A DNA stretch of 16,371 nucleotides from a virus. A program made the translations under genes and the position numbers. The notes beneath the pieces were generated by a model. The model was not told where the DNA came from and made no database searches. It worked only from the letters and a program-made list of their open reading frames with translations. Of the stretch, positions 9,035 through 13,268 are shown in pieces. The stretch lies in the UHGV virus genome UHGV-0104965. One strand, written 5' to 3'. How positions within the stretch are numbered: the first letter of the stretch is position 1; every line of letters begins with the position of its first letter.

Positions 9035-9926
9035 TGACGGCCCCCTGCATGCTGTTGAAGAGACCACCAGCGGTCGTGATAATTTCACTCATCGGCATAC
9101 GTTCGAGCCACAGCTGGTTGATATTGGCTTTCAGCTTGTTCTGCTGTGAAACAGGTAGAGCGTCAGCCCCTTCAATCTGGTTAAACACCAGGCCAACCTC
9201 AAGAGGCCAGATGCGCGACTCTGCATCAGGCGTTGCAATGGGAGCAGGCATTACATTTTCCGGCACCGACGGAAGGGCCAATTTTGCCGCGGCGAATTGA
9301 GCCAATGACAATGCGGCACGCCCTTTTTCTTCCAGTTCGGTGCGATTGATATAGCTGAATCTTTCACCACGCCAGGTTTTGTCAAAGACAGCGATTGCCC
9401 CGGCAAAAAATGCGCTGGTGGGTTGCTGCTTCTCGTCAGCGGGAACAAACCAAACAGGAAGATCGAACCCAATACGACCACGAATAAACATGATGTGATC
9501 GGCATCCTCCGGCCACCATGTTTCACTTGTGGCTGACTTCACGAGGTATATGTAACGACCACCTTGATCACGCATCGCCATTGTGTGATTCATGATGTGG
9601 GTCATGCCAGTGATGGCCTGCTTTTCATGGTACTGAGAACGGCTATATGGCGGATTTGCAAACGCGGCGCCACCGAGTTCTGCCAGACGCTCTGACCAGT
9701 CCTGCGTCAGCGCGTTATCTTCGGCGGTATACCATGCAGGGCATTTAGCATTGCTATCGTCTGCAAACAGATCCAGAACCATCGGCCCAAATATCGAATT
9801 GATGCCCCAAAACAACAAATCCGGAGTGCGCCACTGATCGCCAACCTCTTTCAATTCATGCGCTGGCTTTGAGCGCAGTTCAGCCAGCGCGCGGCAATAT
9901 TTGTTATCAGCATTCATGCTCATCAT
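9027..9926 (-). CDS. Phage DNA N6-adenine methyltransferase (phage Dam family) with about 100-aa C-terminal extension
   Basis: WRTPDLLFWGINSIFGPMVLDLFADDSNAKC...AFANPPYS: the W-x-T-P ... D-x-x-A ... NPPY pattern of the phage Dam family. ATG overlaps stop of the O-like gene (ATGA at 9923-9926). Confidence 0.9.
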   Translation of the reverse strand: MMSMNADNKYCRALAELRSKPAHELKEVGDQWRTPDLLFWGINSIFGPMVLDLFADDSNAKCPAWYTAEDNALTQDWSERLAELGGAAFANPPYSRSQYHEKQAITGMTHIMNHTMAMRDQGGRYIYLVKSATSETWWPEDADHIMFIRGRIGFDLPVWFVPADEKQQPTSAFFAGAIAVFDKTWRGERFSYINRTELEEKGRAALSLAQFAAAKLALPSVPENVMPAPIATPDAESRIWPLEVGLVFNQIEGADALPVSQQNKLKANINQLWLERMPMSEIITTAGGLFNSMQGAVNA

Positions 9927-10786
9927 TTCGCTCCCCTGAAGCCAGCTGGAATGGCTTTATCTGGTCCACCAAATTTCATCGGATCATGCTTACGGATTGA
10001 GCCCCAATACTGTCGTTCTGGACGTCCTGCTGCGTTCCACTTATTTGCGGATTGCAGGTAGCCTGGGAATTTTGTTGGCAGAAACAGCGTTGTTGGGCGC
10101 AGATATTCGGCCATTTTCAGATCCTCGCCCCACTTCTCGACGCTGTAATCCACCACCAACAGCAGCTCATCGGGCGTAAACCCGTCAGCCAAGCGAGCCC
10201 GGATGTTTTCCAAGGATGATTTGCAGACCTGATACCGTGATCCGGTGGTCTTGTTCAGATGTGATAAAACCTGCTTCGCCTGATCGGTGATAACCACCAC
10301 AGGGTCGGGTTGCGCAGCAACCGGACAAGAATGTTTTTTATCTGATGGATCAGTAGTTGTATTTACTGACGGATCCCCCCCAGATTCTGACTGGTGAAAA
10401 CCGCCTTTTTCATCGTTTTTTGATGCCTCAGATTTTGACGCGTCGGTTTTTGAGGCATCAGATTTTGATGCGTCAGAATCTGACAGGTGAGAAAAGGCAG
10501 CAGCCTGTAATTTCGCAACATTGAGCTGGTAAACGTTCGATGCATTGCGGTTGCCTTTACGGCGCTGCTGGCGGGTTAACCACCCGTCTTTTTCCAGTTG
10601 AGATATGGCTGTGCGAACCGTGCTCTCACCGGCACCAATCTGGCGCGCGATGGTAGCGATGGAAGGCCAGCTAACCCCTTCATCACTGCTGAAGTCTGCC
10701 AGACGCGCCATGATGGCAACGCTGGACAGCTTCATGCCAGAAGCGGCACAAGCGTCCCAAACGTAACCCGTTAATTTAGTGCTCAT
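9923..10786 (-). CDS. Replication initiator (lambda O-like function): N-terminal winged-HTH, repetitive linker, conserved phage C-terminal domain
   Basis: N-terminal HTH ...WPSIATIARQIGAGESTVRTAISQLEKDGWL; central low-complexity repeats SDSDASKSDASKTDASKSEASKND encoded by iteron-like DNA repeats; C-terminal domain ...VLSHLNKTTGSRYQ...ENIRARLADGFTPDELLLVVDYSVEKW typical of phage replication proteins. ATG at 10786. Confidence 0.85.
   Translation of the reverse strand: MSTKLTGYVWDACAASGMKLSSVAIMARLADFSSDEGVSWPSIATIARQIGAGESTVRTAISQLEKDGWLTRQQRRKGNRNASNVYQLNVAKLQAAAFSHLSDSDASKSDASKTDASKSEASKNDEKGGFHQSESGGDPSVNTTTDPSDKKHSCPVAAQPDPVVVITDQAKQVLSHLNKTTGSRYQVCKSSLENIRARLADGFTPDELLLVVDYSVEKWGEDLKMAEYLRPTTLFLPTKFPGYLQSANKWNAAGRPERQYWGSIRKHDPMKFGGPDKAIPAGFRGAK
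10325..10484. repeat. Candidate origin of replication: four iteron-like repeats plus adjacent AT-rich tract inside the initiator gene
   Basis: CAGATTCTGAC (10381), CAGATTTTGAC (10429), CAGATTTTGAT (10459), CAGAATCTGAC (10474); 23-bp direct repeats GATGCCTCAGATTTTGACGCGTC / GAGGCATCAGATTTTGATGCGTC 30 bp apart; AT-rich segment 10325-10375. Same layout as lambda ori within gene O. Confidence 0.55.
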
Positions 10787-11127: not shown

Positions 11128-11733
11128 TTACTTCTCCATACAAGATTTGTCTGCCACGACGCCCGGAGCTGCACACTCGCGGGCGTCACTCTTTTCCGGC
11201 GCACAAAACACACGGAAAAGCAGCGTCAAATGTTCCTGCCACTTAGCCATCACCTGATAGCTGTTCTCTTCGATCTGGGTGCGTTCCTGAGCATCAATAA
11301 CGCCGTCAGCGGTAGCTTTACGAACGTATTGTGAATGCCTGCCGATCCACTCAACTGACTCCATGAGACGCTGGTTGATATCGCCGTTCTCAATCTCTTC
11401 AACATCAGCCAATGGCACAAAAACACCGTTCGAGTGACGTGCAATAGCGTTCGCTATGTGGTTTGAACCACCAGCACGTTGAAGCACCATCGCCCAACCG
11501 AGCGGGAAGATCTGATCGCCATCGGTACGCAGCCGGTTAAACAGCGCGTTCTCGGTCACACCCAACCACTCAGCAGCTTCTGAATATCCGCCAGGCAGCT
11601 CGGTGATCGTTTTTTTGATTGCGGCCACCAGCCAGGCTGGCTGCTTATCTACTTTCCATTCAGGTTCTATACCCACGGCTAGGTCCTCCCTTCTGTGGTT
11701 ATTTCTGATCGTTAGGCGATGTATTCTTGCCAT
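11128..11733 (-). CDS. CII-like lysogeny-establishment regulator (phage 186 CII / YdaT-like family)
   Basis: Position immediately downstream of cro-like gene; HTH-like segment YSEAAEWLGVTENALFNRLRTDGDQIFPLGWAMVL resembles the phage 186 CII pattern. ORF 11128..11760 begins with GTG; first ATG at 11733. Start uncertain (no clear SD); overlaps cro-like gene end. Confidence 0.6.
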   Translation of the reverse strand: MARIHRLTIRNNHRREDLAVGIEPEWKVDKQPAWLVAAIKKTITELPGGYSEAAEWLGVTENALFNRLRTDGDQIFPLGWAMVLQRAGGSNHIANAIARHSNGVFVPLADVEEIENGDINQRLMESVEWIGRHSQYVRKATADGVIDAQERTQIEENSYQVMAKWQEHLTLLFRVFCAPEKSDARECAAPGVVADKSCMEK

Positions 11734-11914
11734 AACGTTCTGGGTTGAATTCCAGTTCACCAGCAGTTCGATACGCAGCTTCAGCAGCTCGTCCTTTAGG
11801 GATTAAGCGTCCGGGGCGATTACGCCACTGGTAAACGGCCTCACTGGTGATGCCAAAAAATTCGGCAACTTTCTCAGTGCTGCCGAAATGTTGTTCAATC
11901 TCGTCGGTTGTCAT
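11699..11914 (-). CDS. Cro-like repressor (YdaS/Cro-type HTH)
   Basis: 71 aa with HTH STEKVAEFFGITSEAVYQWRNRPGRLIP; strong AGGAGG SD (11919-11924) before ATG at 11914; divergent from the CI-type repressor across an operator-rich region. Confidence 0.8.
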   Translation of the reverse strand: MTTDEIEQHFGSTEKVAEFFGITSEAVYQWRNRPGRLIPKGRAAEAAYRTAGELEFNPERYGKNTSPNDQK

Positions 11915-11927
11915 GAAGCCTCCTTAG

Positions 11928-11991
11928 CTAAGTTTGGTTAGATATTAATAACCAATCTAACTTTGGTCAATAAAAACTAAGATTACTTAGT
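11928..11991. promoter_or_regulatory. Right operator region with PR and three CTAAG-type repressor binding sites
   Basis: Sites CTAAGTTTGGTTAG (11928-11941), CTAACTTTGGTCA (11957-11969), ACTAAGATTACTTAGT (11976-11991). On the minus strand TTGACC (-35; plus 11965-11970), 17 bp, TAATAT (-10; plus 11942-11947) forms PR for cro; the CI-type repressor gene starts at 12014. Confidence 0.6.
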
Positions 11992-12013
11992 CTTTTTTAA
12001 ATTTGGTGCTTTC

Positions 12014-12640
12014 ATGGAAACGGTTGGTCAGCGCATTAAAGCCCTACGCAGGGTTACAAAAACCTCTCAAAAAGAACTGGGTAAGTTCTGCGGGGTTAGT
12101 GACGTAGCGGTGGGTTATTGGGAAAAGGATGTGAATATCCCTAACGGAGAATCGCTGGTTAAGCTGGCTAAATTCTTCAATACATCAATAAATTACATTC
12201 TTTACGGCACTGAATTTGAAGGTACCCTCATAACTAAAATGAGGCGTGTGCCCGTGATTTCCTGGGTTCAAGCTGGGCAGTTTACGGAATGTAAGGCCGC
12301 TGATTTATTCAGTGATGTTGATAAATGGGTTGAAACATCACTACGCATTGGGGATAGCTCGTTCGCTTTAGAGGTCAAAGGGGATTCAATGACCAATCCA
12401 AATGGCCTCCCAACAATCCCTGAAGGGGCAACCGTTATTGTTGATCCAGATGCCGAACCCCTTCATGGCAAGATTGTTGTTGCGCGTATTGATGGCACTA
12501 ACGAAGCGACTGTTAAAAAACTGGTCATTGATGGCCCACAAAAATTTTTAGTCCCACTAAATCCTCGCTACCCCAACCTCCCGATCAATGGTAACTGCCT
12601 CATTATTGGCGTAGTTAAAGGCGTTCAGTACGAACTCTAA
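12014..12640 (+). CDS. CI-type prophage repressor (N-terminal XRE HTH, C-terminal S24 LexA-like peptidase)
   Basis: HTH QKELGKFCGVSDVAVGYWEKDVNIPNGESLVKLAKFF; C-terminal autocleavage domain with Ser in GDSM and Lys in VKKLV; divergent from cro-like gene. Confidence 0.95.
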   Translation: METVGQRIKALRRVTKTSQKELGKFCGVSDVAVGYWEKDVNIPNGESLVKLAKFFNTSINYILYGTEFEGTLITKMRRVPVISWVQAGQFTECKAADLFSDVDKWVETSLRIGDSSFALEVKGDSMTNPNGLPTIPEGATVIVDPDAEPLHGKIVVARIDGTNEATVKKLVIDGPQKFLVPLNPRYPNLPINGNCLIIGVVKGVQYEL

Positions 12641-12670
12641 TCCCTTCCCGCTCTTCCTCTAAGCATCAAG

Positions 12671-12723
12671 CTAAGTTTAGTTTGATGTTTTCACTTGACC
12701 AATAAACTAAGTTAAGTTAGATT
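12671..12723 (+). promoter_or_regulatory. Left operator region with PL-like promoter
   Basis: Operator-like sites CTAAGTTTAGTTT (12671-12683) and CTAAGTTAAGTTAG (12707-12720) related to the OR sites; TTGACC (12695-12700), 17 bp, TAGATT (12718-12723) directed rightward into the early-left operon. Confidence 0.55.
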
Positions 12724-13076
12724 TTTTTCTGTCGACACCAAACCACCGCGCCTGATGTGGTTAAAAGCAGGCCAAAGCAATAAGACGTGATCCCTGTTCT
12801 GGCTGCTCACTTTCCCCTTGAGGGTGACAGCCAGCTTTTTAAGGGCACAACGTGAAAGCGCACTCCTTCTCTCTTTCACTGCGGGGGCAGGTTTGTTACC
12901 GAAAGAGTGCGCTTCCAGTTGTGGTAATGCGGCTCTGCGCACGTGACGAGGCCAACAAGTTTTTATTTCAACTTTTGAAATGAATACGTTTCTTGAGGTG
13001 TAGCGTCGCCGGTTCTGGCCGGTCCGGCAGGTGGAGGCACCACCGCCACAACAAAATCATTGCTGTGTGTAGTCTT

Positions 13077-13105
13077 TGCCCATCACATCGGTGGGCACCT
13101 TTTTT
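13077..13105 (+). terminator. Candidate intrinsic terminator in the PL leader
   Basis: TGCCCA(13077-13082)-9 nt loop-TGGGCA(13092-13097) followed by CC and TTTTTT (13100-13105). Moderate stem; lies about 380 nt downstream of PL and about 165 nt upstream of the first clear early-left gene. Confidence 0.4.
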
Positions 13106-13268
13106 ACACAAGAGACAAGGGCATCACCGGGCGACGGGCTCATTCCCCAATCCACCCGGGCGCTATGGAAATGGACCTCCTACCCATAGCCGAAGCGCAG
13201 GTGCCCTTTTCTGTTGTGTATGGAGAAGTTCCACTGGCGGTGGCAGCCGCCTCACAGAGGGTTAAACC

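Follow-up and report, generated by a model that had tools for sequence, protein, structure and literature searches.

Which DNA sites set the immunity of the virus UHGV-0104965 is the question raised by a 16,371-nt stretch of its genome (hereafter, the window), in which a repressor gene lies between two intergenic regions that share a palindrome built on CTAAG. The original prediction read this locus as an immunity region, i.e., a repressor gene flanked by two operator clusters that each overlap a near-consensus promoter (PR and PL hereafter). We found this reading supported by the protein families encoded, by motif statistics, by footprinting among relatives, and by comparison with phages Flotzy and P22. 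The region is highly likely to be an immC-type switch of a lambdoid E. coli prophage, with a P22-like architecture and a different operator sequence, and the CTAAG-type sites are very probably the binding sites of the repressor.

The module extends from position 11681 to 12743 and contains, in this order, cro, the right operator region (OR), the repressor gene, a terminator, and the left operator region with its promoter (OL/PL), making it a self-contained unit of the lambdoid type. Specifically, cro (71 aa; 11699–11914) is encoded on the (−) strand and the repressor gene (208 aa; 12014–12640) on the (+) strand, with cII (~11128–11676, (−) strand; PF06892 CII match) located downstream of cro. 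This arrangement, in which cro and the repressor gene diverge and cII follows cro, is that of a P22-type immC switch, and the annotation of near-identical records agrees with it.

Four copies of one operator motif flank the repressor gene

A repeat search returned one family of four 24-nt stretches, at positions 11925, 11974, 12668, and 12704, and no further repeated dyad in the two intergenic regions. Relying solely on the pattern of the original prediction rather than on the frame derived below, we searched for CTAAG-N4-(C/G)TTAG with no more than one mismatch and found only 11928–11941, 11977–11990, 12671–12684, and 12707–12720 in the whole 16.4 kb. The operator can be described as an 18-bp dyad, A-n-CTAA(G)-N4-(C/G/A)TTAG-n-T, which occurs four times at a score of at least 11/12, always in the two intergenic regions. 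In the frame A.CTAAS....STTAG.T, the sites designated O_R1, O_R3, O_L2, and O_L1 scored 12, 11, 11, and 12 of 12, respectively. The spacer proved to be 4 bp in every good site, which narrows the 4–6 bp proposed originally.

We explored if these repeats could reflect chance similarity in AT-rich intergenic DNA, given that the two regions have a G+C content of 32% compared with 51% for the window. However, the number of sites scoring at least 11/12 expected per window is 0.06, and 0 of 5,000 Markov simulations with the intergenic composition attained the observed site count. All five CTAAG pentamers of the window fall in the two intergenic regions, and in the complete 42.9-kb genome of coliphage LLS the same four sites alone reach at least 11/12, with no further sites elsewhere. 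Combined with the conservation described below (half-sites invariant in 79 loci and kept in distant relatives), these statistics effectively refute the chance explanation. The exact operator strings had no match in a full-text literature search, and the literature on mEp460 consisted of prophage-typing mentions and an unrelated sRNA-17 paper, whose supplements contain none of the sequences found here.

We also considered the CTTAG at 11923–11927, within CTTAGCTAAG at 11923–11932, as an operator half-site. We rejected this candidate because it varies among relatives; it is part of the ribosome-binding-site context of cro (CTAAGGAGG on the (−) strand).

Outer operator positions are conserved and central positions vary

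We assembled 80 viral contigs with repressors 91–100% identical to that of the window and two more distant loci, which gave 79 distinct immunity regions. In OR, CTAAG 11928–11932, TTAG 11938–11941, CTAAG 11977–11981, and CTTAG 11986–11990 are invariant in all 79 loci. The strongest variation inside O_R1 and O_R3 occurs at 11937 (G/A) and 11985 (A/G/C), i.e., beside or within the central four bases. In the DNA that follows the repressor gene, nearly all positions vary, with an entropy often exceeding 1 bit. The kept exceptions are 12707–12721 (O_L1 plus the PL −10 element), which is essentially invariant in the 79 loci, the TTGA of the −35 element, CTAA 12671–12674, and AGTTTG 12679–12684. Prophages of Klebsiella and Raoultella with repressors 85–88% identical display the same pattern with different central bases. 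Neither the repressor recognition helix nor any of the operators differs in mEp460_4F5 or in prophages of Klebsiella, Salmonella, Citrobacter, and Enterobacter.

The pattern extends to phages vB_VIPKPNMC05, Kp4866-6, and 689R5, whose repressors have DNA-binding domains only 49–54% identical to that of the window. The first two carry CTAA-N6-TTAG at all four positions with identical start-to-start spacings of 49 bp and 36 bp, while 689R5 keeps it at three of four positions, with O_R1 and O_L1 exact, one mismatch in O_R3, and a weaker O_L2. As this comparison shows, the G in fifth position is under the weakest constraint of all half-site bases. The proposal that the half-site defines the immunity specificity of this phage is only partly safe: the CTAA-N6-TTAG core is common to repressors with only ~50% identity between their DNA-binding domains, so specificity may be set at finer positions.

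Across the 79 loci and the distant relatives, the outer operator positions are thus invariant and the central four variable, as in the 18-bp operators of P22 type. The P22 repressor contacts positions 2–7 and 12–17, but not 8–11, of its 18-bp sites (PMC4267663), a contact rule that matches the conserved-outer, variable-inner pattern of the window operators.

The repressor and Cro belong to the P22 and lambda families

The identities originally assigned to the cro and repressor genes were borne out by matches to PF14549 (P22_Cro, E-value of 2.5e-12) for Cro and to HTH_3 and Peptidase_S24 for the repressor. The N-terminal 65 residues of the repressor align without gaps to the DNA-binding domain of P22 C2 (28/63 identical, 44%; E-value of 1.9e-12) and match structures 1adr, 2r1j, and 3jxb, with the recognition helix reading S29-D-V-A-V-G-Y-W. 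The C-terminal domain matches that of lambda CI (E-value of 7e-27), with QAG (A87-G88), GDS125M, and K168/K169 of the repressor aligned to QAG, GNSM, and KK of lambda, and KKL aligned too. Judged by this alignment, it is a self-cleaving domain of the LexA/CI type, with Ala87-Gly88 as the predicted cleavage site and Ser125 and Lys168/169 as the predicted catalytic residues.

The structures nearest to the window Cro are N15 Cro (2hin; E-value of 6e-7) and P22 Cro (1rzs; E-value of 1e-3), and its recognition helix reads T-S-E-A-V-Y-Q-W. In the published Cro "evolutionary code", an Ala at helix position H3 goes with A at operator position +5, and a Gln at H6 specifies G at +6 (PMC6649833). The Ala at H3 and Gln at H6 of the window Cro fit the A +5 and G +6 of nCTAAGnn when the dyad axis is placed between two base pairs, as it is with 4 bp separating the pentamers.

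The immunity module is exchanged as a unit

Phage Flotzy is ~97% identical to the window up to ~11681–11700, i.e., the cro/cII junction, and again from 12743, which sets the boundaries given above for an exchangeable module running from cro through PL. Between those flanks, Flotzy carries an unrelated CI-like repressor, with TTGCG-N5-CGCAA sites in both intergenic regions. Flotzy is hence heteroimmune, with a different motif at both clusters. The exchangeable unit consists of cro, both clusters, and the repressor gene, i.e., the classical lambdoid immunity region, which indicates that the sites belong to the repressor/Cro pair.

This swap bears on the idea that the sites are bound only by Cro or by a different regulator (for instance, a C-protein-like reader of CTAAG-N5-CTTAG), with the S24 repressor binding elsewhere. 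The fit of the Cro helix to the half-site and the existence of such a sequence, the C-box of C.Csp231I (PMC9638921), speak for it, but the heteroimmune swap changes the repressor, cro, and both clusters together, and no other repeated dyad is present in the two regions. Moreover, the spacing in the window is 4 bp rather than 5 bp, no C-protein gene of a restriction-modification system was found among the module open reading frames (ORFs) scanned (cro, the repressor gene, and the adjacent cII), and repressor and Cro share operators in P22-type switches (PMC6649833; P22 C2 operator annotation). We therefore consider binding by Cro alone or by another regulator very unlikely, and retain the repressor as the probable ligand of these sites, shared with Cro.

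The C.Csp231I C-box, CTAAG-N5-CTTAG, is read by a dimeric Xre-type helix-turn-helix protein (PMC9638921), the kind of protein also predicted to read the window sites. It consists of the same pentamers as the window sites, whereas its spacer is 5 bp compared with 4 bp in all window sites, and both context and protein differ; the likeness is probably a coincidence. As a separate observation, C.Csp231I is known for cross-talk with the repressor region of the Rac prophage, and cross-talk of such C proteins with the sites at 11928–12720 is conceivable.

OR contains two strong sites and a weak candidate for a third

O_R1 (AGCTAAGTTTGGTTAGAT; 11926–11943, core 11928–11941; 12/12) aligns with P22 OR1 and is located directly downstream of the PR −10 element, where transcription of cro is predicted to begin. 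A consensus scan found PR, which would drive cro and cII leftward, on the (−) strand at 11970..11942, with the −35 element TTGACC at 11970–11965, a 17-bp spacer, and the −10 element TAATAT at 11947–11942. Both hexamers are kept in relatives, and variants of the −10 element retain T1, A2, and T6. O_R3 (AACTAAGATTACTTAGTC; 11975–11992, core 11977–11990; 11/12) adjoins the repressor gene and aligns with P22 OR3. Its core is a perfect palindrome, the only one among the sites, and if O_R3 were also the tightest site, the filling order would differ from that of lambda. A promoter for repressor maintenance (PRM) is predicted on the (+) strand at 11955..11983, with a weak −35 element, ATCTAA (11955–11960), and a −10 element, TAAGAT (11978–11983), inside O_R3; this −10 sequence is invariant in the 79 loci and reads TAAGAT or TAAAAT in distant relatives.

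Three related sites had been proposed between cro and the repressor gene. Two of them, at 11928–11941 and 11977–11990, are strong, but the third is undetectable by the motif alone, and OR thus shows two strong sites and one weak candidate where a P22-type switch has three operators overlapping PR and PRM. Our candidate for the weak site is O_R2 (AACCAATCTAACTTTGGT; 11950–11967), located in the PR spacer with a 3-bp overlap with the PR −35 element; its centre is 24 bp from that of O_R1 and 25 bp from that of O_R3. An overlapping candidate at 11955–11972 (CTAAC-TTTG-GTCAA) also scored 9/12, but it misfits both the P22 geometry and the Klebsiella site described below, and we ranked it second. The preference for 11950–11967 is drawn from position and comparison rather than from motif score: the site coincides with the position of P22 OR2, its variable positions among relatives are its central 4 bp, the PR spacer is conserved (mean entropy of ~0.14 bits compared with 0.4–1.3 bits in the non-operator part of the PL spacer), and Klebsiella phage vB_VIPKPNMC05 carries CAAAG-CAAA-TTTAG, a 9/10 match, at this position. 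The T-to-A change in the better half of the putative O_R2, CAAAG, recurs in the weak half of O_L2 (CAAAC).

Alternatively, OR may contain only the two strong repressor sites, with the DNA between them being kept as PR spacer, PR −35 element, and PRM −35 element. In line with this, both middle candidates score 9/12, as do 18 other places in the window compared with 13 expected, and CTAA 11957–11960 is variable among relatives. Yet the PR spacer is far more conserved than the non-operator PL spacer, variation falls within what would be the central 4 bp, P22 OR2 has the same location and the same promoter overlaps, and the Klebsiella phage has its 9/10 site exactly there. On balance, a two-site OR appears doubtful but deserves to be kept in mind, and we favor a three-site OR with 11950–11967 as the putative O_R2.

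O_L2 shares its DNA with a probable terminator

Two sites had likewise been proposed just downstream of the repressor gene, and both were recovered, at 12671–12684 and 12707–12720. The additional CTAAG at 12659–12663 is not conserved; it varies among relatives and was rejected as a site. O_L1 (AACTAAGTTAAGTTAGAT; 12705–12722, core 12707–12720; 12/12) lies in the PL spacer, overlaps the −10 element, and aligns with P22 OL1. PL, the rightward early promoter, was detected by the consensus scan on the (+) strand at 12695..12723 (−35 TTGACC, 17 bp, −10 TAGATT); like PR, it lies exactly as originally stated. It is conserved in relatives, in some of which it leads straight into protein-coding genes, and its start, CACTTGACCA..., aligns with the annotated P22 PL. 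O_L2 (AGCTAAGTTTAGTTTGAT; 12669–12686, core 12671–12684; 11/12) is located upstream of the PL −35 element, 36 bp from O_L1, and relatives carry a full-consensus site at the O_L2 position with the same 36-bp spacing. O_L1 and O_L2 thus form an operator cluster over PL directly downstream of the repressor gene, as in P22-type phages, and the window yielded no third OL site.

The upstream site coincides with a hairpin that the original prediction had not noted, O_L2 being situated at its apex. RNA folding and covariation revealed a hairpin at 12661–12690 followed by UUUU (12661..12694, (+) strand), with a fold of −14 kcal/mol and a z-score of −4.4. In an alignment of 44 distinct sequences, 99.2% of cells are paired, UA/CG/UG covariation occurs at 12666:12685, many pairs are G-U, and the U-run is 4–6 long in relatives. 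Covariation and G-U pairs indicate selection on the (+)-strand RNA, and the hairpin is therefore probably an intrinsic terminator of the repressor gene, although a simple terminator scan did not flag this AU-rich structure.

It follows that the upstream OL site might be nothing but an AT-rich terminator hairpin, with OL being a single operator. The conserved structure, with covariation and G-U pairs that point to selection on RNA, agrees with this, as do the right half reading GTTTG everywhere because T12683 pairs with A12668, and the CTAAT found in 7 of the 79 relatives. However, the loop AAG is kept even though the hairpin needs none (A12673 and A12674 are invariant and G12675 is present in 72/79), while the next three positions, 12676–12678, vary like an operator spacer. 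Nor do the two dyads coincide, that of the operator being centred at 12677.5 and that of the hairpin at 12675.5, a difference of 2 bp. Furthermore, P22 has a C2-operator motif site 35 bp upstream of the PL-proximal one, inside the annotated OL, and in distant relatives a site with the full consensus precedes O_L1 by exactly 36 bp, the terminator of 689R5 being separate. A terminator-only origin of O_L2 is accordingly judged unlikely, and we keep 12671–12684 as a putative second OL operator. In a side observation on arrangement, the terminator hairpin and O_L2 share the same DNA in this lineage, while P22 and phage 689R5 have a separate GC-rich hairpin upstream of the operators.

Comparison with P22, lambda, LLS, and N15

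We used as a reference the P22 GenBank record that annotates OR1–3, OL1–3, PR, PRM, and PL, read in the orientation of the window. P22 displays the same gene order, with OL/PL directly after the repressor gene, and the window sites correspond one for one with the annotated OR and OL regions, PR, PRM, and PL. The P22 OR sites (ATTAAAGAACACTTAAAT, ACTAAAGGAATCTTTAGT, and ATTTAAGATGACTTAACT) have starts 23 and 25 bp apart; the corresponding distances in the window are 24 and 25 bp. In P22, OR1 directly adjoins the PR −10 element and OR2 occupies the PR spacer with a 3-bp overlap of the −35 element, and the same holds in the window at 11926–11943 and 11950–11967. The P22 PRM (AGGAAT-17-TAAGAT) has its −10 element inside OR3, as the TAAGAT at 11978–11983 is inside O_R3. 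PL reads CACTTGACCATTTAATTAAGAAGTCTTAAAT in P22 and CACTTGACCAATAAACTAAGTTAAGTTAGAT in the window, and the two downstream-most OL motif sites of P22, which we read as OL1 and OL2, have starts 35 bp apart compared with 36 bp in the window.

The two systems differ in what is read and by which residues. The half-site differs mainly at position 3 (A-T-T-(T/A)-A-A-G in P22 and A-n-C-T-A-A-G in the window), and the recognition helix has three differences (S-N-V-A-I-S-Q-W in P22 and S-D-V-A-V-G-Y-W in the window). The specificity of P22 and phage 21, ATT(T/A)AAG with SNVAISQW, is hence not that of the window, AnCTAAG with SDVAVGYW, and the window phage is predicted to be heteroimmune with P22 and phage 21. 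Also unlike P22, the window repressor has a C-terminal domain nearest to that of lambda CI, OL yielded two sites and not three, and the terminator is merged with O_L2.

With lambda, the window shares the divergent PR/PRM logic with a putatively tripartite OR, OL/PL downstream of the repressor transcription unit, and the S24 C-terminal domain, predicted to be self-cleaving, in which Ala-Gly, Ser, and Lys are conserved. Lambda operators are 17 bp long and have a different sequence. In contrast to lambda, the window has no rex genes, and OL and OR are ~730 bp apart. The Cro fold is alpha+beta in lambda but all-helical in P22 and N15 Cro (PMC6649833). N15 Cro, the closest to the window Cro, has a helix pattern in common with it, T-x-x-A-V-Y-Q-W, and N15 half-sites likewise carry A and G at +5 and +6, respectively, while positions +2 to +4 of the N15 half-site TTATAGCT differ from those of the window.

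Coliphage LLS is 97% identical over the region, and nothing functional differs. Its repressor was reported to be most like that of mEp460_4F5 (89%), the nearest repressor of known specificity being that of P22 (PMC12315714).

Several of our observations and one published statement weigh against the operator and promoter assignments made here. The motif statistics are somewhat circular, since the motif was derived from the sites that it scores. O_R2, at 9/12, scores at background, and PRM was missed by the consensus promoter scan. O_L2 has one mismatch, its right half being GTTTG and not GTTAG in all relatives, and its conservation is partly explained by the RNA hairpin around it. At helix position H6, Tyr of the repressor replaces the Gln of P22 C2, although bases +5 and +6 are identical, and the way in which the repressor reads AAG is thus not simply copyable from P22. 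Finally, the operator specificity of LLS has been called unknown and likely novel (PMC12315714).

Distribution and gene neighborhood

Coliphage LLS and a few prophages of E. coli match the segment 11600–13300 at 97% identity, and the cro-repressor part occurs at 60–80% identity in about 500 of 5,426 complete E. coli genomes. Repressors 84–98% identical are present in Salmonella, Citrobacter, Enterobacter, Klebsiella, and Raoultella. In annotated relatives, the left side comprises lysis genes, Q, methyltransferases, an O-like replication gene, a cII/YmfL gene, and then the leftward cro, while the right side comprises the rightward LexA-family repressor, an unannotated gap of ~630 bp, yfdP, yfdQ, an HD hydrolase, xis, and int. 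Some near-identical prophages, of E. coli ST536 and others (L006 and H12–H14), have ~330 bp of inserted DNA that separates the repressor gene from the yfdP-like gene, as judged from a match in two pieces that spans 2,031 bp compared with the 1,701-bp query.

The O-like replication gene of the window (9923–10786) contains nested inverted repeats at 10381–10482, in which 10381–10400 pairs with 10463–10482 and a palindrome at 10421–10460 (TGATGCCTCAGATTTTGACGCGTC plus partner) is nested. In lambdoid phages, gene O harbors the replication origin at such a position.

The region downstream of PL

Approximately 545 bp between PL and the yfdP-like gene (13269) are without a credible ORF. At 12724–13268, we found no annotated or plausible N ORF, the small ORFs present giving implausible Arg/Cys-rich peptides without ATG starts, and no rrn-type boxA was matched in the window, although relatives have one. 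LLS likewise has no homolog of N (gp24), and a put-like RNA was suggested for it (PMC12315714). Given no N homolog and no boxA match, no nut-type site was found, and the N/nut type of antitermination does not describe the window. Comparison of the early region of HK022, which has put sites, with the DNA downstream of PL revealed no significant blastn similarity, and no inverted copy was found downstream of PR; these similarity tests neither support nor exclude a put-like mechanism in the window.

Directly behind PL, many relatives carry an additional conserved element of ~85 nt (CATCAACAGCGAACAGGCAGGACGCCC...GGATGATTCGC; loci L003, L004, L005, L087, and L098), which the window does not have; in L004 and L005, a hairpin is followed by TTAGCTCTTTAACAA, an rrn-type boxA. 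A stretch of ~105 nt on the (+) strand (12743–12850) is conserved in 34 distinct loci, including the heteroimmune Flotzy, with the 5′ 60 nt being nearly invariant. It begins ~15 nt downstream of the predicted PL start and ends ~120 nt from it. Its 3′ hairpin, CTGGC(T/G)G...C(A/C)GCCAG, followed by a T-run, shows a compensatory UA/GC change in the outer stem, and the inner stem is replaced in some loci. The stretch has no Rfam match and looks like a short terminated leader RNA or small RNA (sRNA). Beyond 12850, the PL-to-yfdP alignment across relatives is uninformative, as content differs.

At 12970–13106 on the (+) strand, the Rfam RprA family (RF00034) matched end to end with 42.3 bits (E-value of 4e-4), which falls below the threshold of 70; at gathering thresholds, Rfam returned nothing in the window or in three relatives. 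Within this stretch, 26 nt at 13059–13084 (ATTGCTGTGTGTAGTCTTTGCCCATC) match the 3′ part of the chromosomal rprA gene of E. coli at every position, while the 5′ part is unrelated, and a similar terminator is located at 13077–13097 with a T-run. It could be a prophage mimic of the RprA 3′ half; a literature search for such a mimic found nothing.

Proposed switch and its implications

The layout suggests a switch that would work as follows. A dimer of the 208-aa repressor would bind the 18-bp operators, with its helix-turn-helix reading the outer bases and leaving the four central bases uncontacted. In a lysogen, repressor at O_R1 and O_R2 would shut PR and at O_L1 and O_L2 would shut PL, while O_R2 and O_R3, as in P22 and lambda, would probably first activate PRM and then restrict it. 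OL and OR may interact through the lambda-like C-terminal domain. Upon DNA damage, RecA-stimulated self-cleavage at Ala87-Gly88 would release PR and PL and induce the prophage, and Cro made from PR would bind the same sites and turn the repressor gene (PRM) off. Repressor binding, occupancy order, cooperativity, PRM, and SOS induction are all features that we infer here rather than observe.

A broader reading would join these findings into a widespread enterobacterial immunity group of LLS/mEp460 type, defined by CTAA(G)-N4-TTAG and departing from P22 in two ways. The first would be the fused terminator/O_L2, which would place bound repressor exactly at the decision to read through into the early-left operon. 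The second would be a PL that, with no N gene, drives a non-coding leader of ~540 nt, within which lie an RNA of ~115 nt, conserved in structure and closed by a terminator, and a mimic of the RprA 3′ half. As a whole, this reading is speculative and rather improbable; if true, it would place host sRNA mimicry under direct repressor and SOS control.

What is new here is an operator prediction for a common immunity type in the P22-like family, one that would not surprise specialists and leaves the textbook lambdoid picture unchanged. A model of the operators with coordinates lets mutual immunity among prophages be predicted and reporters and chromatin immunoprecipitation (ChIP) controls be designed. 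It also permits a test of how a recognition helix with Asp, Gly, and Tyr instead of Asn, Ser, and Gln reads a P22-like half-site in which a single base, at position 3, has changed from T to C.

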